A stretch of 64,000 bases of DNA from Thermodesulfobacteriota bacterium (GCA_965197885.1 OZ240231.1:845501-909500), one strand, 5' to 3'. Positions 11,037-51,840 are shown, counted from the stretch's first letter. The notes: generated by a model from the sequence alone, not told the origin. Numbers and translations are program-made.

Positions 11037-11046
11037 CCGTTTGTCC

Positions 11047-11646: not shown

Positions 11647-11658
11647 AATCCCTCTCTC

Positions 11659-12213: not shown

Positions 12214-12217
12214 TTCC

Positions 12218-12547: not shown

Positions 12548-12549
12548 GT

Positions 12550-12918: not shown

Positions 12919-12965
12919 TTATTTTCTTGTTTTCTCCCGTCGTCCGCGGAATCAAAAACCCTGCC

Positions 12966-13859: not shown

Positions 13860-14559
13860 CGGTATCTATATTCTCAGGGGCCTTGTTCGCCCTCCCCTTT
13901 ACCTTTTTCTGTATTATCTCGCCTTTGAATATCCAGACCTTTACACCTATTACTCCGTATGTAGTCGACGCTTCGGCAACCCCGTAGTCGAGGTCTGCGC
14001 GGAGCGTTGCCAATGGCACTCTTCCTTCCCTGTACCACTCCCTTCTCGCTATTTCGGCTCCGCCGAGACGCCCGGAGACCATAACTTTTATCCCGAGAAC
14101 CCCAGCTCGAATGGAGGAGGAAAGCACCCTTTTCATGGCCCTTCTGTACGCAACCCTTCTTTCAAGCTGAAGGGCAAGGTTTTCCGAGACGAGCTGCGCG
14201 TCAGTTTCGGGCCTCTTTACTTCCCTTATATCAAGAAATATGCCTTTCCCGGTCATCCCCTGGAGTTTTTTCTTCAGTTGCTCTATCTCCTGGCCTTTCC
14301 TTCCTATGATGATCCCGGGCCTTGCCGCGTACACCAAAATCCTGACCTTGTCCGCCGCGGCCCTCTCAATCTCAATGTTCGAGATAGCCGCCTGATAAAA
14401 GGTCTTCTTTATGTAGTTGCGAATTTCTATATCCTCTTTGAGCAAGGATCTGTACATCTGTTTTTCGGCAAACCACCTGGAGTCCCACGACCTGGTTATT
14501 CCAATGCGAAATCCTATAGGATTAATTTTCTGGCCCAATTCAGAATCCCCTCTGTTCAA
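13846..14559 (-). CDS. rpsC: 30S ribosomal protein S3
   Basis: 237 aa. KH domain, [17 protein letters not shown]. Confidence 0.97.
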
Positions 14560-14878
14560 GTATTATCGTTATGTGACTCATACTGCTTTTACGGGCAAAA
14601 GCCCTTCCCATCGCTCTGGCCCGAAAACGTTTCAGTGTTGGGCCCTGCGTTGCATAGATTTCCTTTATGTAAAGGGCATCTATATCGCTGTATCCTTTTT
14701 CAGAGGCGTTGGCAACAGCCGACTTCAGCAGCTTCGAAATCAGCGGTGAGACCCTCTTGCGGGCAGAAAGAAGAATCGATGAAGCTTCCTCAACACCCTT
14801 GCCTCTTACGAGGTCAAGCACCACTCTGGCCTTCTTCGGCGATACTCTAGCATATTTATGTACTGCTTTAGAAACCAT
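14540..14878 (-). CDS. rplV: 50S ribosomal protein L22
   Basis: 112 aa. Contains [19 protein letters not shown]. Confidence 0.95.
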
Positions 14879-14898
14879 TTGTTATCTCTCTGTTATTA

Positions 14899-15177
14899 CT
14901 ATCTCTTTTTGGCTTTCCTGTCACCCGAGTGACCATGATAAGTCCTTGTGGGAGAAAACTCGCCCAGTTTATGCCCAACCATCTGTTCGGATACGAATAC
15001 GGGGACAAATCTCTTTCCGTTGTAAACCGCGAAAGTCATTCCTATCATCTCTGGTATTATCATTGAGGCTCTTGACCAGGTCTTGATAATTCTCTGACTT
15101 CCGGAACTCTGCGCCTGCTCAACTTTCTTCATAAGTTTTTCGTGTACGTACAGTCCCTTTTTACTTGATCTTGCCAT
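14899..15177 (-). CDS. rpsS: 30S ribosomal protein S19
   Basis: 92 aa. [15 protein letters not shown] and [13 protein letters not shown]. Confidence 0.97.
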
Positions 15178-15192
15178 CCGAAGCTCCCGCGA

Positions 15193-16041
15193 TTAATCCA
15201 TTCCGTAGCCAATTCTTCTTGGCTTAACTATATATTTGTCCATTCTCTTGTTGTTTCTCGTCTTTTTTCCTATTGTAATCCAACCCCAAGGGGAAACAGG
15301 ATGAGGATTTCCCTTGGCCGCTTTGCCTTCTCCTCCCCCATGGGGATGATCAACCGGGTTCATAGCCACCCCGCGAACTGTCGGCCTTACCCCCTTGTGA
15401 CGTGATCTTCCGGCCTTGCCCCACACTATAAGCTCGTTTTCAGCGTTCCCGATTCTTCCTACGGTAGCCATGCACTTCAGGTGAACAAGTCTTATTTCGC
15501 CAGAAGCGAGTTTTATCTGGGCGTAGTTGCCGTCTTTTGCGGCAATCTGTGCAGATGAACCGGCGGAGCGGATTAGCTTTCCTCCGCCTCCAGGTCTCAT
15601 TTCTATATTGTGAACAACTGTACCCACAGGAATATTTTCTATGGGAAGAGCATTTCCGCTTGAAATCTCTACCCCGGGTCCGGAATTCAACTCATCACCC
15701 ACTTTAAGGCCCGCAGGGGCTATAATATATCTTTTTTCACCGTCAGCGTAGGTCAGAAGCGCAATTCTAGCCGAGCGATACGGATCATACTCCAGCGAGA
15801 CTACTCTGGCAGGTACGCCGTGCTTGTTCCTTTTGAAATCTATTATTCTGTAACGTCTCTTGTGACCGCCGCCTTTTCTGAAGCTGGTAATTCTTCCATC
15901 TGAGTTGCGTCCAGAGCTTTTTTTAAGTGAGACAGTAAGGGACTTGTGGGGCGTTTTGGAGGTTATTTCCTCAAAATCAAACCCGGACATAAACCTTCTT
16001 CCCGGAGATGTGGGGTTATATTTTTTTACTCCCATGATCAA
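15193..16041 (-). CDS. rplB: 50S ribosomal protein L2
   Basis: 282 aa. Contains [19 protein letters not shown] and [18 protein letters not shown]. Confidence 0.97.
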
Positions 16042-16325
16042 ACTCCCTCAAACAGGTTGATTTCTCCTTCTCTGAGTTTCACGTAAGCCTTTTTAACCGC
16101 TGATCTCTTTCCCACAACCCTGCCGAATCTTTTCACTCTTTTTCCAGGAAGTACAAGTGTTCTTACTCTGTCCACCTTGACGCCGAAAATCTTCTCAATT
16201 GAGTCCTGTATCTCTTTCTTATTGCACCTTCTGTCGACGGAAAAAACATACCAGCCGTTTTCTCTGGCTTCGGTGCTTTTCTCAGTCACTATCGGAAGTT
16301 TTATGATCGAGCGAGGATCTTTCAT
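16038..16325 (-). CDS. rplW: 50S ribosomal protein L23
   Basis: 95 aa. Sits between rplD and rplB. Start overlaps the rplD stop. Confidence 0.93.
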
Positions 16326-16942
16326 GAAAGTCTCTCCTGAATTTTTTCAACCGAATCCCGCACAATGACTATGTTCTTGTGCCTAAGCAGATCGTAGACA
16401 TTGAGTCCTTCATCTACCAGAACCTTTACGTCGGGTATGTTCCTTGCAGACTTACGGAGATTCTCGTTATCCGAACCGACAACCACAAGGGCTTTGGAAA
16501 ATTCGAAATCCTTCATGAATTTCGCCACCTGTCTGGTTTTTATTTCCGGAAGCTCTAAATTGTCGAGCACAACTATGGCACCTTCGCCGAAACGGCTTGA
16601 AAGAGCGGAAACAAGCGCCCCTTTTCTTACCTTTTTCGGAATTGAGTAAGACCAGTCTTTAGGCTTTGGTCCGAAAGTCACTCCACCCTTGCGCCAGATC
16701 GGAGAACGTCTGGATCCCGCCCTTGCGCGACCCGTGTGTTTCTGTTTCCAAGGCTTTGCCCCGCCACCGCGGACTTCACCTCTTGTTTTGGTGGACGCAG
16801 TCCCGGCCCTTTTTTTGGCAAGCTGCCAGTTAACGACTTCATGAAGCAGGTGCTTTTTCACCGGAGCTTCAAAGATCTCGGAGCGAAGCTCAATCGTTCC
16901 CACTTTTTTCCTGGCGATGTCGTATACATCAACTTGAAGCAT
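16322..16942 (-). CDS. rplD: 50S ribosomal protein L4
   Basis: 206 aa. Contains KPWKQKHTGRARAGSRRSPIWRKGGVTFGPKP. Confidence 0.95.
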   Translation of the reverse strand: MLQVDVYDIARKKVGTIELRSEIFEAPVKKHLLHEVVNWQLAKKRAGTASTKTRGEVRGGGAKPWKQKHTGRARAGSRRSPIWRKGGVTFGPKPKDWSYSIPKKVRKGALVSALSSRFGEGAIVVLDNLELPEIKTRQVAKFMKDFEFSKALVVVGSDNENLRKSARNIPDVKVLVDEGLNVYDLLRHKNIVIVRDSVEKIQERLS

Positions 16943-17573
16943 TTTTCGCCCCCTTTGACGTGTACCGGAGAAAAACCGTTCCTCCCACAGGGCCCGGAAC
17001 TGATCCCTTTACGAAAAGAAGGTTTCTCTCAACATCTATATCGACTACCTTGACACCCTGAACCGTTACATTCTTTCCACCCATGCGCCCTGGCATTTTT
17101 ATGCCTTTCCACACCTTGGCCGGGTATGAAGCCTGTCCTATAGAACCAGGTCTTCTGTGGGCCATACCACCGTGGGACATCGGTTGTCTTGAAAAATTGT
17201 GGCGTTTTATGGCTCCGGCAAACCCCTTGCCCTTGCTTTTAGCGGTGACATCAAGAACGTCTCCTACCTTGAAAATGTCAACCTTTACCACATCCCCTAT
17301 GTTGTAATCTTCAACTGTGGCGGAGAACTCTCTGAGTTTCGCGGTGGGATTCACCCCGGCTTTCGCGAAATGTCCCTTCATGGGGCGCGTAACCCGCTGA
17401 GGCTTTACATCTTCAAACCCGAGCTGGATGGCATCGTAGCCGTCTGAGTCCTTGGTTTTTTTAGAAACCACGGGGCATGGACCCACTTCAACGACGGTAG
17501 TGATGACCTTCACCATATCGTCGTTGAAAAACTCGGTCATCCCCCTTTTTCTTCCTATAAGTCCCTGAATCAT
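16929..17573 (-). CDS. rplC: 50S ribosomal protein L3
   Basis: 214 aa. Contains [13 protein letters not shown] and [20 protein letters not shown]. Confidence 0.97.
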
Positions 17574-17577
17574 ATTT

Positions 17578-17898
17578 TTACGAGCCCGTAAGTTTTATCT
17601 CCACTTCCACACCCGAAGCAAGATTTAGTTTCATAAGTTCGTCTATCGTCTGCTGGGTAGGTTCAAGTATGTCTACAAGCCTTTTATGCGTTCTTATTTC
17701 AAAATGTTCTCTCGAGTTCTTGTTCACATGAGGACCACGCAGCACACAGTACCTGTTTATACTGGTGGGAAGCGGAACCGGACCGGCTATCCTCGCACCG
17801 GTTCTCTTGGCGGTATCAACAATCTCCTCCGTTGAATTATCAAGAAGCTTGTAGTCAAAAGACTTAAGCTTTATTCTTATTTTCGAAGCTTTACCCAT
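17578..17898 (-). CDS. rpsJ: 30S ribosomal protein S10
   Basis: 106 aa. Contains [14 protein letters not shown] and [13 protein letters not shown]. Its ATG overlaps the tuf stop (TAATG). Confidence 0.97.
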
Positions 17899-19082
17899 TA
17901 TTCAATGATTTCGGTTACTACACCCGCTCCTACGGTTCTTCCACCCTCTCTTATCGCAAAACGAAGCTGCTCCTCCATCGCCACAGGCGCTATCAACTCC
18001 ACCTCCATGCTCACGTTGTCCCCCGGCATTACCATCTCCACCCCCTCCGGCAATATCACTGATCCCGTTACATCCGTTGTCCTTAAATAAAACTGCGGCC
18101 GATACCCAGGGAAAAACGGCGTGTGCCTTCCCCCCTCCTCCTTCTTCAACACATATACCTCAGCCTTAAACTTCCTGTGAGGCTTTATACTCCCAGGAGC
18201 CGACAAGACCTGACCCCTCTCAACCTCATCCTTCCCTATCCCCCTCAACAACACTCCCACATTGTCCCCCGCCTGCGCGTCATCCAGTATCTTCCTGAAC
18301 ATCTCCAAACTAGTAGCCACTGTCTTAGTCGTCTCTTTAAACCCTACTATCTCTATCTCCTTCCCCGCTACTATCCTCCCCCTCTCCACTCTCCCGGTTA
18401 CCACCGTGCCCCGCCCAGATATCGTGAACACATCCTCTATCGCCATCAAAAACGGCTTGTCCATCTCCCTCTTAGGCTCAGGTATGTATCCGTCTATGCT
18501 GTCCATTAACTCAACTATCTGCTCCGCTGCTCCTCCATCCCCCTCTATCGCCTTAAGCGCGCTTACCTTCACTACAGGTACGTCGTCCCCAGGAAATCCG
18601 TACTCACTCAACAACTCCCTTATCTCAAGCTCCACCAGCTCAAGCAACTCCTCGTCATCCAGCAGGTCAACCTTGTTAAGCGCCACCACTATGTACGGCA
18701 CTCCTACCTGCCTCGCTAGCAGTATGTGCTCCCTTGTCTGCGGCATAGGCCCGTCAGGCGCACTCACCACCAGCACCGCACCGTCCATCTGCGCCGCACC
18801 CGTTATCATGTTCTTTATGTAGTCTGCGTGCCCAGGACAGTCAACATGCGCGTAGTGCCTCCCGGCTGTCTCATACTCCACGTGCGCTATGTTTATCGTT
18901 ATCCCCCTCTCCCTCTCTTCCGGAGCCTTGTCTATGTTGTCAAACTCCACGTACTCCGCCTGTCCCTTCTTCGATAATATGTTCGTTATCGCCGCCGTTA
19001 ACGTCGTCTTCCCATGATCCACATGCCCTATCGTCCCTATGTTTAAATGCGGCTTCCCCCTCTCAAATCTTGCCTTAGACAT
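17898..19082 (-). CDS. tuf: elongation factor Tu
   Basis: 394 aa. Contains [14 protein letters not shown] and DCPGHADY. C-terminal beta-barrel domains present. Confidence 0.98.
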
Positions 19083-38705: not shown

Positions 38706-38741
38706 ACTTTTCATGACCCGGCCTTAAAAAAAGAAATCGAA

Positions 38742-39215
38742 TCAGTCCGCATCCTTAAGCCATCTTGCCAGCGCCTTGTCCGGGTCGGTTATCTCTTCCA
38801 CGGAACCATACAAGTAAACCTCCCAGCCCTTTTCAGGCATGCCGGCAAACAGCATCAGGTTGAGCGGATAGACCTCGCTGTCGGTGCATCTGCGAAAGTC
38901 ATCCCGGAACAGAAATACGGGTTTGTCCCAAGCAATCGCCATTCCTAGCTCCACCATAACTCCTTCGTCCGGCGGACATCCATTGACAACTGCGAACAAT
39001 CCATCGGCCTCGCGTACGTCCCGAAGGTCCGACTGTCCAACCCTGTAGGCCCAACCGGCGGCCACCTTATCAACCTGATTATTCCGGGAAAACGGCTCCC
39101 ATACCTCGGCTCCCATTGATTCCAGAACCTCAACAAGAACCGCCAGGGGCCCTTCGCGCTGCTGCACGGAAAAGCCGTAGGGATTAGCCAGATACAGGGT
39201 TTTTCGTTTCGTCAT
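38742..39215 (-). CDS. nucleoside 2-deoxyribosyltransferase-like (NDT/Rcl-fold) protein
   Basis: 157 aa. YLANPYGFS and DEGVMVELGMAIAWDKPVFLF, typical of PF05014. Confidence 0.6.
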   Translation of the reverse strand: MTKRKTLYLANPYGFSVQQREGPLAVLVEVLESMGAEVWEPFSRNNQVDKVAAGWAYRVGQSDLRDVREADGLFAVVNGCPPDEGVMVELGMAIAWDKPVFLFRDDFRRCTDSEVYPLNLMLFAGMPEKGWEVYLYGSVEEITDPDKALARWLKDAD

Positions 39216-39298
39216 GTTAAAAAAGTGGTTCCGCCTGAGGGTCAGAACAATTCAGATCACATCCCGTGGTCGGCCAGAAACGCTTCAAGCATCAGTCA

Positions 39299-39850
39299 CT
39301 ATCCTCCGTCCGTTCCAGACCCACGGCGCCCGATCTTTTCAAGTCTCGCACGAAGTTCCACGCTGTCAAGCGAGTCGAACGGAAGGGGCAGAAACGCGGC
39401 GACACGCTCTTTGAGCAATTCGTAGGTTTTTTCAAAAACTTCGCGCTGTCCGGTTTCGGTTCCCCTAATACCTGCGGGGTCCGCAAGACCCCAGTGAGCC
39501 GTTACGGGGCCCCCAGGCCACACGGGACAGGGTTCACCCGCTGCGTTGTCGCACACCGTAATAACAAAATCCATTAATGGGGCGCCCGCCGCCTCAAACT
39601 CGTCCCAAGGCTTGGAACGCAGGTTCCCCGTGTCGTGCCCCCGGCTGAGCAGAAGCTCTAGAGCGCGGGGGTGAATTTCTCCCCGCGGATGACTCCCCGC
39701 GCTGTAGCCGACAAATCTTCTACCGCCATTGTGGTTCAAAATGGACTCGGCGATGATCGAACGGGCCGAGTTGCCTGTGCAAAGAAACAGCACCCTATAG
39801 ATCCGTTCACACGATGGCTGCTTTTTTTTCATGACTCTCCCCTTTGGCAA
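39299..39850 (-). CDS. arsC: arsenate reductase, LMW-PTP/thioredoxin-coupled type (start may be Met7)
   Basis: VLFLCTGNSARSIIAE CX5R P-loop. Downstream Cys pair VITVCDNAAGEPCP. Confidence 0.85.
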   Translation of the reverse strand: MPKGRVMKKKQPSCERIYRVLFLCTGNSARSIIAESILNHNGGRRFVGYSAGSHPRGEIHPRALELLLSRGHDTGNLRSKPWDEFEAAGAPLMDFVITVCDNAAGEPCPVWPGGPVTAHWGLADPAGIRGTETGQREVFEKTYELLKERVAAFLPLPFDSLDSVELRARLEKIGRRGSGTDGG

Positions 39851-39960
39851 TTATACCCCGATTACTTTTCTGCGAGCACGCTAAATGGTCGAGAAGACAG
39901 AATCTTTTAAAAACCTCGCCTCCGCTTAGACACCAAGTCCTTGTAATATATAATTTCTCC

Positions 39961-40759: not shown

Positions 40760-41665
40760 TCAGTCTCCGTAACCGAATTCCTTTATCAGGAAATCACTCT
40801 GAGTCCAGTTCTCCTTAACCTTCACCCAAAGTTCCAGAAACAACTTTACTCCCAGGATTCTTTCAATTTCAACCCTGGCCTCAGAACCGATCTGCTTGAG
40901 CATCCCCCCGCCCTTCCCTATTAGAATTCCCTTGTGGCTTTTTCTCTCAACGTAGATTTCCGCGTTTATCCTTATCAGGTTTCGCTCCTTATCCTCGCTG
41001 AACCCCGAAACCACCACGGCAACCCTATAGGGGATTTCTTTCCGCGTAAGGTTGAATACCTTCTCCCTTATGAGTTCACTAACGTAAAAGATCTCGGGCT
41101 GATCCGTGAAAACATCATCGGGAAAATATTTCGGTCCCTCGGGCAGGTGTTTTTTTAGAAGTTGGGTGAGTTGCTCTACCCCATCGTTGTTAAGAGCTGA
41201 GATGGGGATTATTTCGAGGAACTTCTCAGAGAATCTCTCGGCAGCCGAAAGTACCGATAGGAGCTTTGATTTTTTTACCTTGTCGATTTTGTTTACGACA
41301 AACACAGAAGGTTTCCTGAGCATCTTCAGTATGGATTCGTCTGCTGCTCCGAAAGGTTTTTCCACGTCCGTAACAAACGCCACTAGGTCGGCATCCGACA
41401 GAGCACTGCTTACCGCTCGGGCCATGGATTTTCCAAGCCTGCTTTTTTCCCTGTAAACACCCGGGGTATCAAGAAAAACCAGTTGGGAATCATCAAAAGT
41501 CTTTACGCCCAAGATTCTGTTTCTGGTAGTGCTCGGCTTATCCGAAACGGCCGAGACTTTTTCTCCCACGATGGAATTTACAAGAGTGGACTTGCCGACG
41601 TTGGGCCGTCCTATAACGGAAATGAACCCGGATCTGAAACCCTCTTTTGAAGTTGTTTTGGACAT
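40760..41665 (-). CDS. era: GTPase Era
   Basis: 301 aa. GFISVIGRPNVGKSTLVN G1 motif. DTPG. C-terminal KH domain. Confidence 0.95.
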   Translation of the reverse strand: MSKTTSKEGFRSGFISVIGRPNVGKSTLVNSIVGEKVSAVSDKPSTTRNRILGVKTFDDSQLVFLDTPGVYREKSRLGKSMARAVSSALSDADLVAFVTDVEKPFGAADESILKMLRKPSVFVVNKIDKVKKSKLLSVLSAAERFSEKFLEIIPISALNNDGVEQLTQLLKKHLPEGPKYFPDDVFTDQPEIFYVSELIREKVFNLTRKEIPYRVAVVVSGFSEDKERNLIRINAEIYVERKSHKGILIGKGGGMLKQIGSEARVEIERILGVKLFLELWVKVKENWTQSDFLIKEFGYGD

Positions 41666-41776: not shown

Positions 41777-42016
41777 ATGGAAATGAGTCGAAGCAAAGAT
41801 ACATCACATCCAATTACTCACTGGTTCAGAAACGACCTCAGACTCTCGGATAATCCGGCGCTCGCAGAGGCAGCGAAATTCACTCGACCCGTAGTGCCGG
41901 TTTACATACTTGAAGACTCGGGGATTTCTTTAGGAAATACATGCCCTTTTCCTATTGTAGATCATATGAATGCTCGAAACCGTGCTCTGGAAATGTTCAA
42001 ACAACTGAGATGTTAA
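41777..42016 (+). pseudogene. phr: remnant of a deoxyribodipyrimidine photolyase/cryptochrome gene (N-terminal ~45 codons only, then divergent tail and stop)
   Basis: ITHWFRNDLRLSDNPALAEAAKFTRPVVPVYILED matches the photolyase N-terminal alpha/beta-domain motif (WFRxDLRLxDNxAL...V.PV.I.D). The ORF is 79 aa against ~470 aa for intact enzymes. Confidence 0.65.
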
Positions 42017-42167
42017 ATGTCTTTATCATTAATCGGTATACAACAAGAATATTTACGTTCAATATAACGGATATTCCTGAAGGCCAAGGCATTAAATCAC
42101 TATGATCGAGTGGTTAAATTCAGAGTAAGATTGATTCAACAATTACTTTTGCCACAATGCCGAACTT

Positions 42168-42195
42168 ATAAAAAAGCCCCCGAATGCGAGGGCTT
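42168..42195 (-). terminator. rho-independent terminator of tracrRNA (8-bp GC-rich stem, CAUU loop, U6 tail)
   Basis: Plus strand has ttataaaaaagcccccgaatgcgagggctt. Only the minus-strand reading has a U-tract. Confidence 0.7.
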
Positions 42196-42285
42196 GGTTC
42201 TCCTTGGAGATTACCTACGAAGCATTTGCTTCTTGTTATGAATAGCAAATTTCGTGGCCTATTCAGTCAGTTATAAACTTTCTGT
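42168..42285 (-). ncRNA. tracrRNA: tracrRNA for the type II-C CRISPR-Cas9 system
   Basis: Anti-repeat at 42233-42284 is complementary, with a 9-nt bulge and a G:U pair, to the minus-strand CRISPR repeat. Downstream on the minus strand come a GAAGCAAAUGCUUC hairpin (42219-42232) and a UCUCCAAGGAGA hairpin, then terminator hairpin AGCCCUCGCAUUCGGGGGCU + U6 (42168-42195). Confidence 0.8.
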
Positions 42286-42290
42286 GATAT

Positions 42291-42318
42291 ATTATACGAC
42301 TTAGATTAGAAAAAGCAA
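42291..42318 (-). promoter_or_regulatory. sigma70-type promoter for tracrRNA (-10 TATAAT 42291-42296, -35 TTGCTT 42313-42318, 16-nt spacer), inside the divergent cas9/tracr control region
   Basis: Minus strand reads TTGCTTtttctaatctaagtcgTATAATatatcac. Predicted TSS ~42284, a few nt before the anti-repeat. Confidence 0.55.
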
Positions 42319-42347
42319 CAAACGGTTGTAACTACGAGGGGTAACCC

Positions 42348-45300
42348 ATGAAGACTAAAGGATACGAATTCGGAGAATACTCAATAGGTTTGGATGTAGG
42401 AACAAATTCGATTGGCTGGAGCGTGATAAAAGAACAAAGCGGCAAACCCCAAGAATTTGTTGATTGCGGGAGCCGTATATTTGTCCGCTCGGTTGAAGAC
42501 AAATCCCCTACTCCGAAAAACAGGAAACGAAGGGAATCACGCCTTCAGAGAAGACAAATACAGCGTCGCAGCAGACGCAAAAACCGCCTCAGGAACTACC
42601 TGATTCTAAAAGGCTTTCTCCCTGAAGTACTAAAAAACAATCCAACTCCTGAGGAAGAACTGAACAAACTTGGAGACCCCTACATTATAAGAGCGAAAGC
42701 ACTGGATGAAGAACTGACTCCTTATGAATTTGGTCGCGCCATACTTCACCTAGGAACGAGAAGAGGGTTTCTGAGCAATCGCAAAACTTCGTTCGGTGAT
42801 CTAGGGAATGATATGAACGCTCGTGAGATACTCGAGAAGGAGGACGAAAGCACGAATGCAAAAGACAAAGAAGAGGGAAAACTCAAAGAAGAAATTGAAA
42901 AACTCAGAGAGAACATAGCCAAAGGCGGCGCGCGCACCTTGGGAGAATACCTTGCTGGGCTTCCGCGCAAGCGAAACAGAGGAGACTTTCATGATCGTCA
43001 TACCGACCGCAGGATGTACAACGAAGAGTTCTCCGAAATATGGAAAAAGCAGTCAGGCTATAACCCCCGACTCCATGATGAGAAAACAAGGAATGAACTC
43101 GAAAAGATCATCTTTTCTCAAAAACCTCTTAAACTAAAGCCGGACCGTGTGGGACGCTGTTCCCTTGAACCTAATCTGTCGCGGACAAGGCAAGGACGTC
43201 TTGAGTTCCAGCGTTTTCGCTACTGGCAGGATATAAATAACCTCTCTTACTATGACCCTGAAACCGGCGAAACGGGAATAGAATTATCAGAGGAGCAAAG
43301 AAAGAAACTCGCCGAAACCTTGGAAACAACAAGAGAGCTTACATGGGCCAAAATCAGGGCCCTGTTGGGATTAAACAAGAAAACGAGTTTCAACCTCCAA
43401 AAAGTTGAAGGCAAGAAAAAAGGTTTGAAAGGAAACCGTACTGCTCACGATATAGACGAGATCATTGGAGACAAGTGGAATTCCCTTAATGAGTCGGAAC
43501 AAGGCTTGCTGGTTGAGGATATCATCTCCTATACATCAAAGAAGGGACTGAAAAAACGTCTCACCAATCACTGGAATTTCTCCGAAGAGGAAGCAACTAG
43601 GCTCGCTGTGATGGAATTGGAAGAAGATCACGCAAGTCTCTCGCTAAAAGCAATAAGAAAAATCCTTCCCCACATGCAAGAAGGGAGAAAGTATAGCTAT
43701 AATCCGGATGATGCAACACAAGATGGCGCAATACAAGCCGCGGGGTACAAGGTTGAACCACCAGAGAGAGGGAATCTCGATATTCTTTCATCTCCACCTT
43801 GGATTCCTAATCCAATAGTTCAGAAAGCCCTTTATGAAATCCGCCGCGTTGTTAATGCGATTATCAGAAAGTACGGAAAGCCATCTGCGATAAGAATAGA
43901 AATGGCCCGTGATCTGGAGATGAACACAAAGAGATATAAGCAGTTTCTCGCGAGACAGAGTGAAAACACAAAAGCAAATCAAGAGGCGGAAGAACAATAT
44001 AGCGTTATCCGGGATAAAAATCCTCATTTGAACCTTCGCAGAAATATAAGCTATCAAGACAAGCTGAAATATAGGCTTTGGAAGGAAAGCGGAAGAAGAT
44101 GTGTTTACAGCGGAAAAAGTATAGGTATGACTGAGCTTTTTACTCATGCGACAGAAGTTGATCATATACTCCCTTACAAAAGTACTCTTGATAATTCATA
44201 CATGAACAAAGTCATTTGTCTTTCCAAAGAGAACAAGGAAAAAAGAGATCGAACTCCCTGGGAAGCGTTCGGCAACACATCCAGATGGGAAGAAATTCTG
44301 ATAATATCAAAGGATTTTCCAGAACCGAAAAGAAAGAGAATTTTAGCCAAAGAACTCCCCGATGATTTCATAAGCAATCAGTTAAATGACACACGTTACA
44401 TATCAAGAGAAACAGCAAAGTATCTAAGGAAACTGGGTTGTGATATAACTTTTACTAAAGGGGGTGTGACAAGCTGGCTACGTCATCAGTGGGGACTCAA
44501 CAGCCTGCTGGGAGGGAGTGAGGAAAAGAGCAGGAACGACCACAGACATCATGCTATTGACGCAACGGTGATTGCCCTTACAAATCGCAGTCTTTACCAG
44601 AAAATCGTTCATTTGGCTTCTGAATCTGAAGATGGTTCCGTATCACCGGAACATGGAATGGAAGTTCCTACACAGATTCCTGAACTTCGTGACGACCTAT
44701 CCGAACGCTTAGATAAATTGATAGTATCGCACTCTACTAACAGGAAACTGGCAGGAGCATTTCACGAAGAAACAGCTTACGGAATAAGAAGAGGGACTGA
44801 CGGAAAGCTTGGAGTTGTAGTCAGGAAAACGCTTACTAGCATGACAGACAGAGATAAAAGAAATATTGTCTGTCCGATAATCAAAAAAGCGGTTGAACTG
44901 TACGTATGGGAACGAGGTGGAAAAATAAAAGAAGCGATGAAGCGGTTACAGGAAGAACCTTTATTGCATCCAAGAACGGGAGATAAGATCCGACGGGTAC
45001 GCGTATGGGTATCAGAGATGCTGAATAGAGATTCCTATTGGGAGCACATAGCTCCGTGGAATAAAGATAAAGTTTTGCGCATTTTACCATATGGAAATAA
45101 TCACCATGTAGAAATATTAAGAAATCGTGAGAATGGAAAATATGGAGCTAAATTCGTAACTACCATGGAAGCCGCAAGAAGGGAAAGAACACTAAAACAA
45201 CCGATTATACAGACAGACCATGGAGAAGATTGGGAATATATAACTTATCTATGTATTAATGATACCGTGAGTATAGAGGAAAACGGAAAAAGGAATTCCT

Positions 45301-45494
45301 ATCGGATTCAAGTACTTGACCCAAACCAAAAAAGAGTAGTTTTAAGGCTTCATACAGCTGCAACATTGGAAAACAGTAACGAGAGAAGACTGAGAACCAT
45401 TTCAGTATTAATGAGAGATTTAGAAATGAGAAAAGAATCGATAGATGTGCTGGGATGTTCTTCTATCTCTAATAAAAGTGGAATGAATGATTAA
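42348..45494 (+). CDS. cas9: CRISPR-associated endonuclease Cas9, type II-C (1048 aa)
   Basis: RuvC-I YSIGLDVGTNSIGWSVI (D16). Arg-rich bridge helix RRESRLQRRQIQRRSRRKNRLRNYL. HNH VDHILPYKSTLDNSYMNKV (His ~606). RuvC-III HHAIDATVIALTN (~734-738). GAGGGG RBS 6 nt before the ATG. Confidence 0.95.
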   Translation: MKTKGYEFGEYSIGLDVGTNSIGWSVIKEQSGKPQEFVDCGSRIFVRSVEDKSPTPKNRKRRESRLQRRQIQRRSRRKNRLRNYLILKGFLPEVLKNNPTPEEELNKLGDPYIIRAKALDEELTPYEFGRAILHLGTRRGFLSNRKTSFGDLGNDMNAREILEKEDESTNAKDKEEGKLKEEIEKLRENIAKGGARTLGEYLAGLPRKRNRGDFHDRHTDRRMYNEEFSEIWKKQSGYNPRLHDEKTRNELEKIIFSQKPLKLKPDRVGRCSLEPNLSRTRQGRLEFQRFRYWQDINNLSYYDPETGETGIELSEEQRKKLAETLETTRELTWAKIRALLGLNKKTSFNLQKVEGKKKGLKGNRTAHDIDEIIGDKWNSLNESEQGLLVEDIISYTSKKGLKKRLTNHWNFSEEEATRLAVMELEEDHASLSLKAIRKILPHMQEGRKYSYNPDDATQDGAIQAAGYKVEPPERGNLDILSSPPWIPNPIVQKALYEIRRVVNAIIRKYGKPSAIRIEMARDLEMNTKRYKQFLARQSENTKANQEAEEQYSVIRDKNPHLNLRRNISYQDKLKYRLWKESGRRCVYSGKSIGMTELFTHATEVDHILPYKSTLDNSYMNKVICLSKENKEKRDRTPWEAFGNTSRWEEILIISKDFPEPKRKRILAKELPDDFISNQLNDTRYISRETAKYLRKLGCDITFTKGGVTSWLRHQWGLNSLLGGSEEKSRNDHRHHAIDATVIALTNRSLYQKIVHLASESEDGSVSPEHGMEVPTQIPELRDDLSERLDKLIVSHSTNRKLAGAFHEETAYGIRRGTDGKLGVVVRKTLTSMTDRDKRNIVCPIIKKAVELYVWERGGKIKEAMKRLQEEPLLHPRTGDKIRRVRVWVSEMLNRDSYWEHIAPWNKDKVLRILPYGNNHHVEILRNRENGKYGAKFVTTMEAARRERTLKQPIIQTDHGEDWEYITYLCINDTVSIEENGKRNSYRIQVLDPNQKRVVLRLHTAATLENSNERRLRTISVLMRDLEMRKESIDVLGCSSISNKSGMND

Positions 45495-46398
45495 ACGCAT
45501 TATTGAGGTCAGCAATCCGTCTTACCTTCATATGAGAGACTACCAAATGATTGTTGAGCAAAAGAAAAATGAGATCGAAAGGATCCCTATTGAAGATATG
45601 GGAGTCTTGATACTATCAAATCCGGCAATAACAATTTCCTCAAGCCTTATAGCATCTTGCCAGCAAAATAATTGCATTATTGTTTTCTGTGACGGCAAAC
45701 ATCTTCCTGTATCTATTCTCCTACCACTATCCGGGAACTCCATGCATAGTAAGATTTTAAATATTCAAACAGGCGTAAAAAAGCCGACAAAAAAACGCCT
45801 GTGGCAAAAAATAATAATCGCAAAAATAGAATCCCAAGCAAAAGTATTGCTCTCTTGCGGTAAAAATGCTTCCGCCCTTGAGTCAATGAAATCACGCGTG
45901 AAAAGCGGTGACCCAGATAATGTTGAGTCTCAAGCTTCAAGGGTTTACTGGCCTCTTATGTTTGGAAAGGATTTCAGGCGGGACCAGAAGGCTGAAGGCA
46001 CGAATTCTTTATTGAACTACGGATATGCTTTGCTGAGAGCCTCCGTTGCTCGTGCGATTTGTGGAACGGGGTTGCACCCCGCTTTAGGAATCCATCATCA
46101 CAATCAGTACAACCCGATGTGCTTAGCTGACGATCTTATGGAACCATTCAGACCTGTTGTTGACAGAAAAGTCTATAAACTATGGGAAAAAGAAATATTT
46201 GTCGTCAGCAAAAAAACAAAATCATTTTTGTTGTCCTTTTTAGCTGAGCCTTTGATATTCAGGGATAAGAAACTCCCGTTTATGGTAGCTTTGCAGTACA
46301 CCGCTACAAGCTTGAAGAAAGCTTTAACTGATGGACCGGAATCCTTAGAAATACCAAGGCTTGCAATCAAAGAACAACAGGAGATGTTTTTGATATAA
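45487..46398 (+). CDS. cas1: CRISPR-associated endonuclease Cas1 (type II)
   Basis: 303 aa. NSLLNYGYALLRASVARAICGTGLHPALGIHHHNQYNPMCLADDLMEPFRPVVD. ATG overlaps the cas9 stop by 8 nt. Confidence 0.93.
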   Translation: MIKRIIEVSNPSYLHMRDYQMIVEQKKNEIERIPIEDMGVLILSNPAITISSSLIASCQQNNCIIVFCDGKHLPVSILLPLSGNSMHSKILNIQTGVKKPTKKRLWQKIIIAKIESQAKVLLSCGKNASALESMKSRVKSGDPDNVESQASRVYWPLMFGKDFRRDQKAEGTNSLLNYGYALLRASVARAICGTGLHPALGIHHHNQYNPMCLADDLMEPFRPVVDRKVYKLWEKEIFVVSKKTKSFLLSFLAEPLIFRDKKLPFMVALQYTATSLKKALTDGPESLEIPRLAIKEQQEMFLI

Positions 46399-46400
46399 AA

Positions 46401-46730
46401 ATGATTTTCGGGGGATATAAAACTTTGTGGGTAATAGTAATGTTTGATCTGCCCACAGATACAAAGGCAGACAGACGCTCTTATACATTATTTCGCAAGT
46501 CTCTTCTTCAAGATGGCTTTTCTATGCTTCAGTTCTCCGTTTATATCAGACATTGCGCTAGTGACGAGAATGCATATGTACATTCGGGAAGAGTTCGTAA
46601 TGCTTTACCACCTAAAGGAGAAGTTAGAATCATTAATGTCACCGATAAGCAGTTTGAAAGAATGCAGGTTTTTTATGGAAAAAAACGAAAGAAAACTGAA
46701 AAGGCTCCCAAGCAAATATCTCTTTTTTAA
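46401..46730 (+). CDS. cas2: CRISPR-associated endoribonuclease Cas2
   Basis: 109 aa. VIVMFDLPTDTKADRRSYTLFRKSLLQDGFSMLQFSVY, a typical Cas2 ferredoxin-like core. Starts 2 nt after the cas1 stop. Confidence 0.9.
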   Translation: MIFGGYKTLWVIVMFDLPTDTKADRRSYTLFRKSLLQDGFSMLQFSVYIRHCASDENAYVHSGRVRNALPPKGEVRIINVTDKQFERMQVFYGKKRKKTEKAPKQISLF

Positions 46731-46780
46731 TATGCTTGGGAGCCTAAATCACCCGCCAACAAGGCACTTTGGCGTGAAGC

Positions 46781-48008
46781 ATTCTAACTGACTGAAAGGC
46801 CCCCGCTATTCACAACACGGAAGCCGAGATAGACTTCGAGCTTTTATTCTAACTGACTGAAAGGCCCCCGCTATTCACAACTGTTCCGCTGTCAGTAGTT
46901 TCCTTAGCTTATTCTAACTGACTGAAAGGCCCCCGCTATTCACAACTCTTTGTTTTATCGGATCCCAGAATCCCACATTCTAACTGACTGAAAGGCCCCC
47001 GCTATTCACAACGGTTATCGATCGGTCCAGGTGGACGATGGTATTCTAACTGACTGAAAGGCCCCCGCTATTCACAACCGTCAGGGCAGAGTCCTCAAGA
47101 ACTATCCATTCTAACTGACTGAAAGGCCCCCGCTATTCACAACTTACGCGTGGAGCATGATGCTGAAGATTCTATTCTAACTGACTGAAAGGCCCCCGCT
47201 ATTCACAACGCTTATAGATGTGGTTAATCCGGCTAACTCATCATTCTAACTGACTGAAAGGCCCCCGCTATTCACAACTATCACCCGGAGTTCCCCCTGT
47301 TTATCCATATTCTAACTGACTGAAAGGCCCCCGCTATTCACAACCGGTTCGGGCGGCAGAGATACGGAGGGGGATTCTAACTGACTGAAAGGCCCCCGCT
47401 ATTCACAACTTAGTATCGAATGATTGAAACTGAACCAAGATTCTAACTGACTGAAAGGCCCCCGCTATTCACAACAGAAAAGGGATAATCCTTATCATGC
47501 CATCGATTCTAACTGACTGAAAGGCCCCCGCTATTCACAACTGAATCTATACGATATTGTGATGGGTTCAAATTCTAACTGACTGAAAGGCCCCCGCTAT
47601 TCACAACAGAAAAGGGATAATCCTTATCATGCCATCGATTCTAACTGACTGAAAGGCCCCCGCTATTCACAACTGAATCTATACGATATTGTGATGGGTT
47701 CAAATTCTAACTGACTGAAAGGCCCCCCCACAACATTCACAACCCTTCTCGGTCCCGGTCCCGTGGCGGGTCCATCCTAACTGACTGAAAGGCCCCCGCT
47801 ATTCACAACCCGCGTGTATCTCTTCCAGAATCGCGCTTAATTCTAACTGACTGAAAGGCCCCCGCTATTCACAACACAGTATGCTTAGTTGCTTCGGGTG
47901 GGAAGGATTCTAACTGACTGAAAGGCCCCCGCTATTCACAACTATAGGCTTCGGATTCATCAACCTGGTCGAATTCTAACTGACTGAAAGGCCCCCGCTA
48001 TTCACAAC
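46781..48008 (-). CRISPR. CRISPR array: 19 direct repeats (36 bp; repeat 15 is a 40-bp variant, repeat 16 has one substitution), 18 spacers of 29-33 bp. Transcribed orientation inferred as minus strand.
   Basis: Plus-strand repeat ATTCTAACTGACTGAAAGGCCCCCGCTATTCACAAC at 46781, 46846, 46911, 46977, 47043, 47108, 47174, 47243, 47309, 47374, 47440, 47506, 47572, 47638, 47704(var), 47774(var), 47840, 47907 and 47973. Minus orientation begins GTTGTG like other II-C repeats and matches the tracr anti-repeat polarity. Confidence 0.97.
47476..47739. repeat. tandem duplication of a 132-bp block (spacer-repeat-spacer-repeat) inside the CRISPR array
   Basis: Spacers at 47476-47505 and 47608-47637 are identical (agaaaagggataatccttatcatgccatcg). 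Spacers at 47542-47571 and 47674-47703 are identical (tgaatctatacgatattgtgatgggttcaa). Confidence 0.9.
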
Positions 48009-48010
48009 GC

Positions 48011-48784
48011 TCAGAAAATCCCGCCTATCGATCTAACAAGACCCGCCTGAAGATGCGGTTTCGCATCCACAAAATCCAAGTTCGCCTTGTTGGCAACGCT
48101 TATAACTCTGGTCCTGTATATTTTCCATTTAACATCATCAGCATGAGAAGTCTGCTTGGTCCGCGTCGCAGTACCTTGAGATGCATCGGTATCTTCGCTC
48201 TGATAAACGAGTTCTCCTTCCCGGGCACGCTCCCTGATCTGAATATCGGTCACCATCGTGAAAAGATCATCCGTCACGAGCGCGTCAAAAATAAATCCTG
48301 CTATTCCGCCGGCGATTCCCCCAAGCACAGTGCCCTTGTTTATCTCATCAACATCTCCGCCTATGGCGCCTCCTATCACAGCTCCGACAACAGCGCCTTC
48401 GACCACACCTTGGTAACCCTCTCCAAGCATGGCATTTGTTTCCTTAAGATTGGTTTTTCCGACCTTGAGTATGTTGGCCTGAAGAATGAAAGTCGCCTCG
48501 GCCGGGTCTTCCGTGACCTTAAAACCGCTAGAGACTATCCTGCCCTTGATTCCGTACTCAATCCCGGGCAGTTCCTTGTCAGTCGTATTTTTTACGTCGA
48601 CGTAAACTACTCTCTCTTCGGGCGACACCGGTTCAAGAAAAATCGTCTCCGACATTTTAGTTTCAACGGTAAGTTTCCTTTTCTCGATAAGGGTCCTAGT
48701 TGCCGCGCAACCGTTTACAAGAAAAACAAAACAGATAGCTATAGCAAAAAACAGATTTTTTTTACAGGCAAGCTCTTTTCTCAT
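48011..48784 (-). CDS. traT: TraT-like outer-membrane lipoprotein (complement-resistance / surface-exclusion protein family)
   Basis: Signal peptide plus lipobox LVNGC. Extended similarity to F-plasmid TraT (KRKLTVETKMSETIFLEP..., ILQANILKVGKTNLKE, glycine-zipper GAVVGAVIGGAIGG, C-terminal YRTRVISVANKANLDFVDAKP). AAAGGAG RBS. Confidence 0.8.
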   Translation of the reverse strand: MRKELACKKNLFFAIAICFVFLVNGCAATRTLIEKRKLTVETKMSETIFLEPVSPEERVVYVDVKNTTDKELPGIEYGIKGRIVSSGFKVTEDPAEATFILQANILKVGKTNLKETNAMLGEGYQGVVEGAVVGAVIGGAIGGDVDEINKGTVLGGIAGGIAGFIFDALVTDDLFTMVTDIQIRERAREGELVYQSEDTDASQGTATRTKQTSHADDVKWKIYRTRVISVANKANLDFVDAKPHLQAGLVRSIGGIF

Positions 48785-49040
48785 TTATCAAAACTCCTTT
48801 GATTTTAGTGTTGGTGGAAAAATTTCCGCCTTCCGAACTAAAATCGTATGTAAAAAAAGAGGAAAAAACAAATGGAAAAAAAGAGTATGAAGGACACGCT
48901 CCACCCAGGCTTCCTTTCTCAGAAATACAAAACAAAGAATCACGCCTTAACCTTTTCTTGAAATGGTGTGAGAACCTTGCCAATGCAAATCAATCTAGTA
49001 TGATTAGCCAATTCTTGACTGCCGGGAGAACCACGTTTTC

Positions 49041-50837
49041 ATGCTTGAACTTATGGGAGAGTGGAAAAGATCGAATTTCTGCGGAGAGCTTGGGAAAAAG
49101 CACATTGACAGTTCCGTTACGCTCATGGGCTGGGTACAGTCCCGAAGAGACCACGGCGGGGTGATTTTCGTTGACCTGCGCGACAAGGACGGACTCTGTC
49201 AGATCGTTTTTAACCCGGAACGTGACCCAAAAATCCATCAGACCGCGGAGCAACTGCGGGACGAATGGGTAATCGCCATAAAGGGTAAGGTAACGCCGAG
49301 AACGGAGGAAACCATAAACCCGAACCTTAAAACCGGCGAGATCGAGGTCATAGCGCAGCAGGTAAAGGTTCTTAACACTTCAAAAGTAATACCGTTTCTT
49401 ATAGAAAACGAAGTGAACGCCGATGAGCTTCTGAGGCTGAAATACCGTTATCTCGACCTGCGAAGACCGCCAATGCGGGATAACATAATCTTCCGCCACA
49501 AAGTCGCCGCCGCGGTCCGAAACTACTTTAATGAAAACGGGTTTCTTGAGATCGAAACCCCTTATTTCACGAAATCAACTCCGGAAGGTGCAAGGGACTT
49601 TCTTGTTCCGAGTCGGCTTAACGAAGGGCAGTTCTACGCGCTCCCCCAGTCGCCCCAGATACTGAAACAGACCCTAATGATCTCGGGTTTTGACAGATAC
49701 TACCAGATAGTGAAATGCTTCAGGGACGAGGACCTAAGAGCGGACCGCCAGCCCGAATTCACCCAGATAGACATGGAAATGTCCTTTGTCTCAGAAGATG
49801 ACGTGATCTCCATTGTTGAAGGCATGATAAAAACGGTCCTTCAGGAGACGAAAGGAATTGATGTCCCCACTCCTTTTTTGAGAATGCCTTATGAAGAAGC
49901 CATGGAGAGGTACGGAACCGACTGCCCTGATACAAGATTCGCTCTTGAACTAAAAGACATCTCCTCCATATTCGAGAACTCGCAGTTCAAGGTGTTTCGC
50001 GGAGCCTTGGAAAAAGGAGGGGCGATAAAAGCGCTTAACCTTAAGGGAGGAGCCGGGAAACTCACCAGAAAGGAAATAGACGATCTTACCGAATACGCAG
50101 TCTCTCTCGGGGCAAAAGGGCTTGCATGGATAAGGGTCGGCGAGGATGGATGGAACTCTCCCATAGTGAAGTTTCTAAGCGAAGAGGAACGCGGGCTTTT
50201 AGCCTCCGCTCTCTTGATGGAAAAAGGAGACATAGTGTTTTTCGGCGCGGACTCCGTTGAGATGGTAAACCAGGTGATGTCAAACGTAAGGCTAAGCCTC
50301 GGTAAAACTCTTTCGTTTGTTGACGAAGAAAAACTTGAATTCCTCTGGGTAGTCGATTTTCCGCTTTTCAAGTACAGCCCCAAGGAAAAAAGACACGTCG
50401 CCGTTCACCACCCTTTTACCGCCCCCAAGGACGAGGATGTCGAAAAAATCGAGAGTTCCCCGGGGAGCGCCGCTTCAAAATCCTACGACATAGTCTTAAA
50501 CGGAGTTGAGATAGGAGGGGGAAGCATAAGAATTCACAGAAAAGACATACAGCAAAAAGTGCTTGACGCAATAGGAATCGGAGAGGATGAAGCACAGGAG
50601 AAATTCGGTTTTCTCCTCGAGGCCCTTGAATTCGGAGCTCCTCCCCACGGAGGCATAGCGCTCGGTCTTGACAGGATTTTAATGCTTCTGCGCGACGAAG
50701 AATCGATAAGAGACGTAATAGCTTTTCCCAAAACGCAGAAGGGCTCCTGTCCCCTTACAGAAGCCCCGTCTGAGGTTTCCCCGGAGCAGCTTCTTGAGGC
50801 AGGAATAAGCACTATTGCCAAAAAATCAGAAGATTGA
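49041..50837 (+). CDS. aspS: aspartate-tRNA ligase (start possibly at MGEWKR, nt 49053)
   Basis: 598 aa. N-terminal OB domain CGELGKKHIDSSVTLMGWVQSRRDHGGVIFVDLRDKDG. Class II motifs FRDEDLRADRQPEF and GGGSIRIHR...GLDRILMLL. Confidence 0.96.
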   Translation: MLELMGEWKRSNFCGELGKKHIDSSVTLMGWVQSRRDHGGVIFVDLRDKDGLCQIVFNPERDPKIHQTAEQLRDEWVIAIKGKVTPRTEETINPNLKTGEIEVIAQQVKVLNTSKVIPFLIENEVNADELLRLKYRYLDLRRPPMRDNIIFRHKVAAAVRNYFNENGFLEIETPYFTKSTPEGARDFLVPSRLNEGQFYALPQSPQILKQTLMISGFDRYYQIVKCFRDEDLRADRQPEFTQIDMEMSFVSEDDVISIVEGMIKTVLQETKGIDVPTPFLRMPYEEAMERYGTDCPDTRFALELKDISSIFENSQFKVFRGALEKGGAIKALNLKGGAGKLTRKEIDDLTEYAVSLGAKGLAWIRVGEDGWNSPIVKFLSEEERGLLASALLMEKGDIVFFGADSVEMVNQVMSNVRLSLGKTLSFVDEEKLEFLWVVDFPLFKYSPKEKRHVAVHHPFTAPKDEDVEKIESSPGSAASKSYDIVLNGVEIGGGSIRIHRKDIQQKVLDAIGIGEDEAQEKFGFLLEALEFGAPPHGGIALGLDRILMLLRDEESIRDVIAFPKTQKGSCPLTEAPSEVSPEQLLEAGISTIAKKSED

Positions 50838-50948
50838 CCTTCTTACGACTTGCCCGTAAAGCCTTAAAATTCCGTAATGCCCGCCGTGCGATTCACCAAT
50901 TATTACCCGAATCCTTTGTCGTCCAGGCGCTTTGTGTCCGAAACACGC

Positions 50949-51185
50949 TTACGCAAGGTCGCTTATGCTGGCGCCAAAATTTATATGAAACGCGCTGTCG
51001 CCTATGACCAGCGCGGGGACAGACTTGACGCCGCTTGATTCCGCCTCCGAAATCCTGCTTTTGTCTTCTCCGAGATGCACGATTTCGAGCGCATACTTTT
51101 CTTTGTCAAGAGAATTCGCAAGACCTTGTTCGGCATCCACGCAGACCGGGCACCCGGCATGATAAAAAATCGCTTTGGTTTTCAT
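50949..51185 (-). CDS. small thioredoxin-fold (glutaredoxin-like) protein with CPVC motif (start at internal MKTKAIFY, AGGAG RBS)
   Basis: KAIFYHAGCPVCVDAEQ ... VPALVIGD. ~78 aa. Confidence 0.6.
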   Translation of the reverse strand: MKTKAIFYHAGCPVCVDAEQGLANSLDKEKYALEIVHLGEDKSRISEAESSGVKSVPALVIGDSAFHINFGASISDLA

Positions 51186-51276
51186 ATTTGTTAATCTCCT
51201 TATTTGGTTTCGACTCAATACTATCATGAGAAACTACTGCTTATCAAGCAAGTATCGATGCGATACTATAATTATT

Positions 51277-51840
51277 ATGAGCCTTGCGAATCTGCTGAAC
51301 CTGATAGAAAGAATCGGCAATCTGCTTCGTTCAGAACAAAGAAAACTCCTCAAGCCCCTTGGGCTCCTGCCAATTCATCTGGACATTCTTAATTATCTGT
51401 CGATATGCAATAAATACAGCAATAATGCGGCCGCTTTGACCAAATATCTCGGTAATACCAAGGGTACCACTTCCCAGAGCATAAACGTGCTTGAGGAAAA
51501 GGGCTACGTACTCAAGAAAAAGGCGGGAAGCGATAAAAGGGTAGTGAATCTTCACCTTACGGAAAAAGCTTTCGGCCTGCTTGAAGATCTGTCGTCTGAG
51601 AGTTCACGAAAAATTCTTGACGGGGAAAACATAAAAGTCGCCGAAGGTGTCTTGAGAAGCATTCTCAGGTCCATTCAGGTTTCAAACAAAAACCGCACGT
51701 TCGGAGTATGCAGGACCTGTGATTTTTTTATTGACGAGGGCGACGGATCATTGAGATGCGGTTTAACCTTGGAAAAGCTTCTTGAATACGAAACCGAACA
51801 AATCTGCCAGGAGCATGAACCCGCTTCGTACGTAATTTAG
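51277..51840 (+). CDS. MarR-family transcriptional regulator with Cys-rich C-terminal extension (start uncertain)
   Basis: wHTH region KPLGLLPIHLDILNYLSI...LTKYLGNTKGTTSQSINVLEEKGYVLKKKAGSDKRVVNLHLTEKA. C-terminal CRTCDFF...LRCG...CQEH. Divergent from the thioredoxin-fold gene. Confidence 0.6.
   Translation: MSLANLLNLIERIGNLLRSEQRKLLKPLGLLPIHLDILNYLSICNKYSNNAAALTKYLGNTKGTTSQSINVLEEKGYVLKKKAGSDKRVVNLHLTEKAFGLLEDLSSESSRKILDGENIKVAEGVLRSILRSIQVSNKNRTFGVCRTCDFFIDEGDGSLRCGLTLEKLLEYETEQICQEHEPASYVI

Follow-up and report, generated by a model that had tools for sequence, protein, structure and literature searches.

The chromosome of an uncultured Thermodesulfobacteriota bacterium carries a CRISPR-Cas9 locus between the genes era and aspS, beside a shortened photolyase gene, phr, which raises the question of whether the locus arrived recently and broke phr on insertion or whether the two changes have separate histories. 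We addressed this question in a 64 kb stretch of the genome (GCA_965197885.1 OZ240231.1:845501-909500), here called the window, with all coordinates counted from its first letter. A previous description based on the window alone (hereafter the sequence-only reading) had proposed a complete module of trans-activating CRISPR RNA (tracrRNA), cas9, cas1, cas2 and array, acquired horizontally together with a plasmid-type traT gene and truncating phr. The list of open reading frames (ORFs), family scans and repeat searches recovered all parts of this module between era and aspS, including an array of 19 repeats (Table 1). For comparison we used three relatives from an Era scan of reference genomes (L001, L002 and L003) and nine loci from look-ups of Cas9 homologs. 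Taken together, the data indicate that this is very probably a type II-C immune locus that has long resided at one chromosomal site, and that phr decayed separately by an internal deletion.

A complete type II-C CRISPR-Cas9 module

The locus is a complete type II-C CRISPR-Cas9 module. This assignment follows from its gene content, because cas9, cas1 and cas2 are present and neither csn2 (II-A) nor cas4 (II-B) was found in the locus, which has no further non-overlapping ORF of at least 50 amino acids. There is no room for either gene: only 50 nt separate cas2 from the array, and the gap upstream of cas9 is taken up by the tracrRNA. Cas9 scored 675 bits against the hidden Markov model (HMM) TIGR01865 (cut-off 100) and contains the Pfam domains HNH_4, RuvC_III and Cas9_a. 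Its catalytic motifs are intact (RuvC-I D16, RuvC-II E518, HNH D605-H606 and RuvC-III H734/H735/D738) and match those of the best solved Cas9 residue by residue in a motif alignment. Cas1 reached 293 bits with TIGR03639, the type II/NMENI model (cut-off 120), and 358 bits with the PADLOC model Cas1_II; Cas2 was above the cut-off of TIGR01573 (72.5 bits), scored 153 bits with PADLOC Cas2_II and is 94-98% identical to its counterparts in relatives. The HMM scores of all three proteins and the motif alignment therefore bear out the earlier view of a type II-C system with a compact, catalytically intact Cas9 of 1048 amino acids.

In the PDB sequence search, the structures nearest to this Cas9 were compact proteins of 1055-1095 amino acids (E = 1e-76 to 1e-56), which we regard as GeoCas9- and Nme1Cas9-type orthologs of subtype II-C, whereas the type II-A SpCas9 matched at E = 1e-12 only. 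Judged by these best matches and by the fit of Cas1 to the NMENI model, Cas9 belongs with the II-C orthologs. The best matches, 9ar4 and 8uza (E = 2e-76), presumably GeoCas9-like type II-C Cas9, align at the RuvC and HNH motifs, but the match is limited to residues 10-349 and 428-790, and the recognition lobe and C-terminal domains diverge. Similarity is remote to the chains of 1082-1092 amino acids that we assume to be Nme Cas9 (6jdq and related; E = 1e-68), since only the N-terminal three-quarters of the window protein (residues 10-758) aligns to them by sequence. The C-terminal, PAM (protospacer-adjacent motif)-interacting part had no PDB sequence match beyond approximately residue 840, so that the PAM is not transferable from solved Cas9s.

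The Cas9 of Candidatus Mycalebacterium zealandia/Candidatus Dadabacteria metagenome-assembled genomes is 57% identical over 98% of the length. The corresponding loci, annotated and uncharacterised, have cas9, cas1 and cas2 in the same order and a repeat, GTTGTGAATTAAGGGCAGGTTTCAGTCAGTTACAAT, that closely resembles that of the window. The Mycalebacterium locus occupies another site, flanked by genes for an aldehyde dehydrogenase and a BT1 transporter. Candidatus Mycalebacterium is placed by the NCBI taxonomy in the class Candidatus Dadabacteria, phylum Thermodesulfobacteriota, and the records of L002 and L003 are labelled Thermodesulfobacteriota. Exact look-ups of the Era and Cas9 proteins of the window matched no record; judging from the records of the relatives and from the named Cas9 homologs nearest to it, the window probably belongs to a lineage of uncultured bacteria within Thermodesulfobacteriota/Candidatus Dadabacteria.

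tracrRNA, CRISPR array and transcription strand

A tracrRNA of approximately 114 nt would be transcribed divergently from cas9, starting from a perfect TATAAT -10 box (42296-42291, minus strand) and ending at an intrinsic terminator (42195-42174 plus a T run, minus strand), which is the strongest terminator-like site of the region, with nine pairs of which six are G-C. Its anti-repeat (42277-42235, 43 nt, minus strand) is complementary to the CRISPR repeat, and a repeat-GAAA-tracrRNA chimera folds with -70.4 kcal/mol (z = -9.4 versus shuffles), forming a long duplex interrupted by an internal loop and, after it, two stem-loops and the terminator. The tracrRNA was found at the same place and on the same strand in six related loci; it is conserved in seven loci, in which the anti-repeat co-varies with the variable middle part of the repeat, four pairs being retained through two-sided changes. 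No Rfam family matched the tracrRNA or anything else in the window, and no second repeat-like small RNA (scaRNA-type) rose above shuffles near the tracrRNA, in the leader or in the traT-aspS gap.

The array is built from 19 copies of a 36-nt repeat, ATTCTAACTGACTGAAAGGCCCCCGCTATTCACAAC, of which 18 have at most one mismatch (0 expected by chance) and 17 are identical. In the orientation of the CRISPR RNA (crRNA), on the minus strand, it reads GTTGTGAATAGCGGGGGCCTTTCAGTCAGTTAGAAT, that is, GTTGTGAATAGC...GTTAGAAT. One aberrant repeat of 40 nt (47704-47743) has CCACAAC in place of GCT, and two repeat-spacer units are duplicated exactly over 132 nt (47440-47571 and 47572-47703). The arrays of L082, L085, L086 and L087 also contain one duplicated spacer each, and within-array recombination therefore seems common in this family of related loci. 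In L087 (14344-23108), whose Cas9 is 64% identical, the array has 43 repeats (14395-17199) and is followed by approximately 4 kb without called genes and then by a second adaptation module on the opposite strand, in which cas2 is accompanied by a cas4-cas1 fusion.

With the tracrRNA encoded on the minus strand, the crRNAs should come from that strand too, which strongly argues for transcription of the array on this strand, from the traT end towards cas2 and antisense to cas9-cas1-cas2. The transcript could arise by read-through from traT, whose stop codon is separated from the last repeat by 2 nt. Initiation inside the repeats, at the TAGAAT hexamer, is also possible: a TAnnnT hexamer closes the 3' end of the repeat in all eight related arrays. 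In the proposed mechanism, the crRNA repeat would pair with the anti-repeat, and Cas9 would bind the duplex and cut matching DNA next to a PAM. Cas1 and Cas2 would probably add spacers at the cas2-proximal end of the array, beside the 50-nt leader. This end is suggested by the leader-like stretch, strongly conserved among the closer relatives in an alignment of seven loci, together with a decayed repeat at the cas-distal end in L081, L082 and L084.

The module resembles the II-C systems of Neisseria meningitidis (Nme1Cas9) and Campylobacter jejuni in its cas9-cas1-cas2 operon without csn2 or cas4, its compact Cas9 (approximately 1050-1080 amino acids) and its 36-nt repeat with a GTTGT start and a -10-like hexamer at the end. 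In those two species RNA-seq showed that the arrays are transcribed opposite to the cas operon, an orientation likewise predicted here, and the decayed repeat at the transcription-upstream end is a further likeness (PMC3737331). Promoters within each repeat drive crRNA synthesis in both (PMC5965381), and by this model the use of a repeat-embedded promoter in the window is putative. The window differs from these systems in having the tracrRNA upstream of and divergent from cas9, and its repeat hexamer lacks the TG extension of Neisseria.

An internal deletion in phr

The sequence-only reading had correctly recognised a photolyase N-terminus in the ORF that stops at 42016; what it took for a divergent tail is a genuine photolyase C-terminus. 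By BLASTP, residues 1-50 of the ORF align to the N-terminus of the 485-residue photolyase of L001, and residues 43-79 correspond to its residues 449-485 with 70% identity. The DNA alignments to the two phr ends overlap by 16 nt (41906-41921) and are offset in L001 by exactly 1218 nt (406 codons); a short sequence resembling ATA(C/T)ACTTGAAGAC is present at both ancestral sites. Residues 15-48 of the remnant match the first 34 of the 164 positions of the Pfam family DNA_photolyase (PF00875) and nothing in the remnant matches PF03441, whereas the L001 ortholog has both. The structure of the remnant shows an in-frame deletion of 1218 nt between imperfect 16-nt direct repeats, with the junction inside the repeat at 41906-41921, which removed the middle of phr, including the whole FAD-binding domain. 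With both of its ends on the upstream side of the CRISPR module, phr was not cut by the module.

Among the relatives, full-length phr lies directly upstream of the module in L082, L085, L086 and L087, and L081/L003 has a phr ORF of 485 amino acids with toxin-antitoxin-type genes between phr and cas9. The gene is absent from L084, and in L090-L092 only its last 25 nt are left, beside a transposase gene. The proposal that acquisition of the module truncated phr therefore does not hold, with both ends of the gene preserved upstream of the module in the window and phr intact beside the module in relatives. In L090 (1-9644), and likewise in L091 and L092, type I-F cas1, cas2-3, csy1 and csy2 are found immediately to the left of the tracrRNA-cas9 module, as are Transposase_mut/DDE transposase genes; L091 also has a second copy of the 150 nt downstream of the phr remnant.

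A chromosomal site shared with relatives

In L001 and L002, whose Era proteins are 94% and 93% identical to that of the window, the gene order is era, full-length phr (483-485 amino acids), traT, aspS and sucA, with no CRISPR locus and with 58-63 nt between the convergent phr and traT genes. Relatives without the module and with an intact phr between era and aspS, as the earlier account had anticipated, thus exist. The module of the window occupies this same gap, in which the 3' ends of phr and traT converge, and the same tracrRNA-cas9-cas1-cas2-array order occurs at the same site in nine loci (L081, L082, L084, L085, L086, L087 and L090-L092), with Cas9 identities from 64% to approximately 90%. 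The stretch missing from the CRISPR-less relatives is 42017-48010, approximately 6.0 kb instead of the 6.7 kb first estimated, with traT outside it.

The gene traT had been described as a plasmid-type gene at the distal end of an island, and this does not agree with its distribution or its family scores. It matches Pfam TraT with 230 bits and does not reach the cut-off of the plasmid TraT model NF010291 (NCBIfam; 176 versus 445). It is chromosomal, has no tra genes nearby and is flank-like in composition (47.5% GC; 0.48 GC at third codon positions, GC3). Furthermore, traT adjoins aspS wherever this flank is visible (L001, L002, L081, L082, L084-L086 and L090), and because it does so with or without a CRISPR locus, it is a native neighbour of aspS and not part of the module. 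The distance from the last repeat to the traT stop is 72 nt in L090, the closest relative, and 2 nt in the window, where the terminal repeat is perfect and not decayed. We infer from this that a further, window-specific deletion would have removed the old end of the array and moved the last repeat up to the traT stop.

At the other border, the stretch of approximately 150 nt that separates the phr stop from the tracrRNA terminator (42017-42169) is shared in part with L082 and L090-L092; L085 and L086 lack it. It contains no repeat-like sequence. A motif within this stretch, AATATTTACGTTCAATATAACGG, also occurs in L082 and L090-L092 and is missing in L085 and L086. The ORF list contains no integrase or transposase ORF in 42017-48010, and no tRNA gene was found in the window. 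The short direct repeats that had been expected to flank the island were likewise not found, the two module borders sharing no word of at least 8 nt.

Composition, gain and loss

The cas genes are AT-richer than their flanks, as had been noted by eye. The GC content of 42017-46730 is 41.2%, and none of 195 windows of equal length elsewhere in the 64 kb is as low (mean 49.3%, sd 1.2%, minimum 46.4%); GC3 is 0.31-0.41 in the cas genes and 0.47-0.58 in the flanking genes (0.39 versus 0.53 overall). GC content and codon usage thus differ from those of the flanks, relatives carry full-length phr and not only an ORF of 79 amino acids, and Cas9 is well above its threshold, which are the three points on which the sequence-only reading could have failed. 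The same AT-rich offset was found in all orthologous loci, and low GC is a standing property of the module and not a mark of recent arrival. In L085 and L081 the offset is far larger than in the window (cas GC3 0.46-0.47 versus 0.72-0.80 in flanking core genes), and this may reflect a special constraint on the module or its exchange within the clade.

A neighbour-joining tree built from Era, TraT and AspS (1045 columns) groups the window with L001 (bootstrap 92%) and L002 with L082 (97%); a grouping of L001 with L002 has 0% support, and the CRISPR-bearing L084, L081, L086 and L085 branch outside those pairs. The CRISPR-less L001 and L002 are therefore nested among CRISPR-bearing genomes, which argues for loss there and not for recent gain here, and the simplest reading of this tree would be that an ancestral locus was lost in L001 and L002. 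In addition, identities of the cas genes broadly follow those of the core genes (pairwise distances, r = 0.59, p = 0.02).

Alternative explanations

Several observations weigh against long residence of an intact, active locus. The tree comprises only three genes, all of them flanking the locus, and no module scar is demonstrable in the empty sites of L001 and L002. A CCGCTAT motif in their phr-traT gaps was considered as a CRISPR-repeat scar and rejected, being matched by 241 of 2000 shuffles for L001 and 1009 of 2000 for L002. The cas genes of L085 are AT-rich despite a GC-rich core (GC3 0.47 versus 0.80), and the cas distances between the most distantly related genomes are compressed; together with the AT-rich cas genes of all relatives, this compression makes exchange a live complementary explanation, and by these comparisons some exchange of modules among relatives is likely. 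As for crRNA synthesis, the -10-like hexamer of the repeat has neither a TG extension nor a -35 element, and a scan for consensus promoters found no minus-strand site in the array. Finally, no protospacer emerged from a comparison of the whole array with 50,697 phage records or from scans of six spacers against viral contigs and of one spacer against metagenome contigs; when the 191 spacers from the window and its relatives were all compared with the window itself and every locus fetched, only within-array duplicates matched.

Three other accounts have to be set against long residence with separate decay of phr. That an island reaching from the tracrRNA to traT was gained recently by insertion into phr would fit the cas genes lying 8 GC points below the flanks and the absence of the module, with phr intact, from L001 and L002; we consider it highly improbable, because the two phr ends, joined in frame, both lie upstream of the module, at least four relatives have an intact phr next to the same module, and traT occurs, with flank-like GC, in CRISPR-less relatives. 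Moreover, the site is common to loci with Cas9 identities down to 64%, CRISPR-less genomes are nested within CRISPR-bearing ones, and the module in the window has neither integrase nor transposase genes nor a flanking direct repeat of at least 8 nt; horizontal acquisition as a recent gain is accordingly not supported. A cassette fixed at this site, with module and "empty" sites exchanged by homologous recombination through the phr/era and traT/aspS flanks, would complement long residence more than oppose it, and we regard it as possible, if the less probable course of events. It would account for the AT-rich cas genes of every relative, the high-GC L085 and L081 included, for cas distances smaller than core distances in the most divergent pairs and the only moderate correlation, for the patchy presence of the module among close relatives and for the likeness of the phr-traT intergenic sequences of L001 and L002, which are not sisters in the flank tree. 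The broad grouping of the cas tree agrees, however, with that of the core tree, and the left junctions differ between sub-lineages in step with relatedness.

The locus could also be an inactive relic heading for loss, as phr has been lost. The lack of spacer matches, the aberrant repeat and the duplicated unit pair, the deletion of the old array end, the loss of the whole locus in sister lineages and the apparently split cas9 of L081 would all be compatible with such a fate. We nevertheless find it very unlikely, since the three cas ORFs are full length with catalytic motifs intact, 17 of the 19 repeats are identical, and the promoter, anti-repeat and terminator of the tracrRNA are conserved. 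The spacer sets, moreover, are wholly different between relatives (191 spacers), which implies turnover. Long residence of a locus that looks intact, and is probably active judging by these features, thus remains our preferred explanation. In L081, cas9 (10001-13131) was called as an ORF of 972 amino acids with an overlapping ORF of 80 amino acids, which suggests a frameshift near its 3' end and hence a pseudogene or an assembly error.

Neighbouring defence genes and other variable spots

The interval between array and traT is variable among the relatives. It holds a SIR2-HerA pair in L086 (16515-20294), after which a solo perfect repeat lies 134 nt from traT, HEC-01 in L082 (15928-17720) and an E1-E2-like pair in L081 (16198-18695); nucleotidyltransferase/HEPN pairs also occur in this interval in relatives. 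In L084, an insert of two genes with weak transposase similarity (15442-17930) divides the array into 12 and 11 repeats. The SIR2-HerA pair and the transposase-like pair thus lie between CRISPR repeats, and HEC-01, the E1-E2 pair, toxin-antitoxin-type pairs and a type I-F system share the phr/traT interval in relatives. It is conceivable, though unlikely, that this gap is a lineage-wide hot spot for defence genes, anchored by the CRISPR-Cas9 locus, in which array repeats would serve as landing or recombination sites for the capture, exchange and loss of other cassettes; if so, the window and L090 would represent "emptied" states.

Two further variable spots were observed near the locus. The aspS-sucA gap of the window contains approximately 970 bp (50843-51811) that are absent from L001 and L002 and present in L090-L091, with a gene for a MarR-family regulator (51175-51840, plus strand) and a thioredoxin/glutaredoxin-like ORF of 92 amino acids (50949-51227, minus strand). 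Comparison with L001 revealed the other at 38714-39920, between a low-molecular-weight phosphatase/arsenate-reductase-like gene (39299-39850, minus strand) and an enoyl-CoA hydratase gene, upstream of which nucleotidyltransferase/HEPN-type pairs are found in L081, L082 and L084.

Table 1. Features of the CRISPR-Cas9 locus and its flanks, with positions in the window.
Feature	Position	Strand	Description
era	40760-41665	minus	from ORF list and family scans
phr remnant	41777-42016	plus	ORF of 79 amino acids; pseudogene or mini-ORF without FAD-binding domain
Spacer region	42017-42169	none	phr stop to tracrRNA terminator; from comparison of junction sequences
tracrRNA (predicted)	42170-42283	minus	about 114 nt; anti-repeat, two stem-loops, intrinsic terminator
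cas9	42348-45494	plus	1048 amino acids, type II-C-like; RuvC and HNH motifs intact
cas1	45487-46398	plus	303 amino acids, type II/NMENI subtype; overlaps cas9 by 8 nt
cas2	46401-46730	plus	109 amino acids
Leader-like stretch	46731-46780	none	conserved 50 nt from cas2 to first repeat
CRISPR array	46781-48008	minus	19 repeats; 18 spacers of 29-33 nt, 16 unique
traT	48011-48784	minus	TraT-family lipoprotein gene; stop codon 2 nt from last repeat
aspS	49041-50837		from ORF list and family scans

Significance

The Cas9 described here is an uncharacterised ortholog of a well-known kind of system, and the locus represents no new system type or mechanism. It adds a compact Cas9, whose tracrRNA and repeat are well defined, from an uncultured lineage that has been little studied, and a guide for this Cas9 can be designed directly as GTTGTGAATAGCGGGGGCC...-linker-tracrRNA (42277-42170). 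The locus also calls for caution, since the combination of low GC content, a broken gene next door and patchy absence among relatives looked like a recent insertion; old residence, independent decay and secondary loss account for it better. Lastly, the related loci indicate that in this lineage a CRISPR locus has been kept at one site while the neighbouring defence genes turn over and phr decays in various ways.

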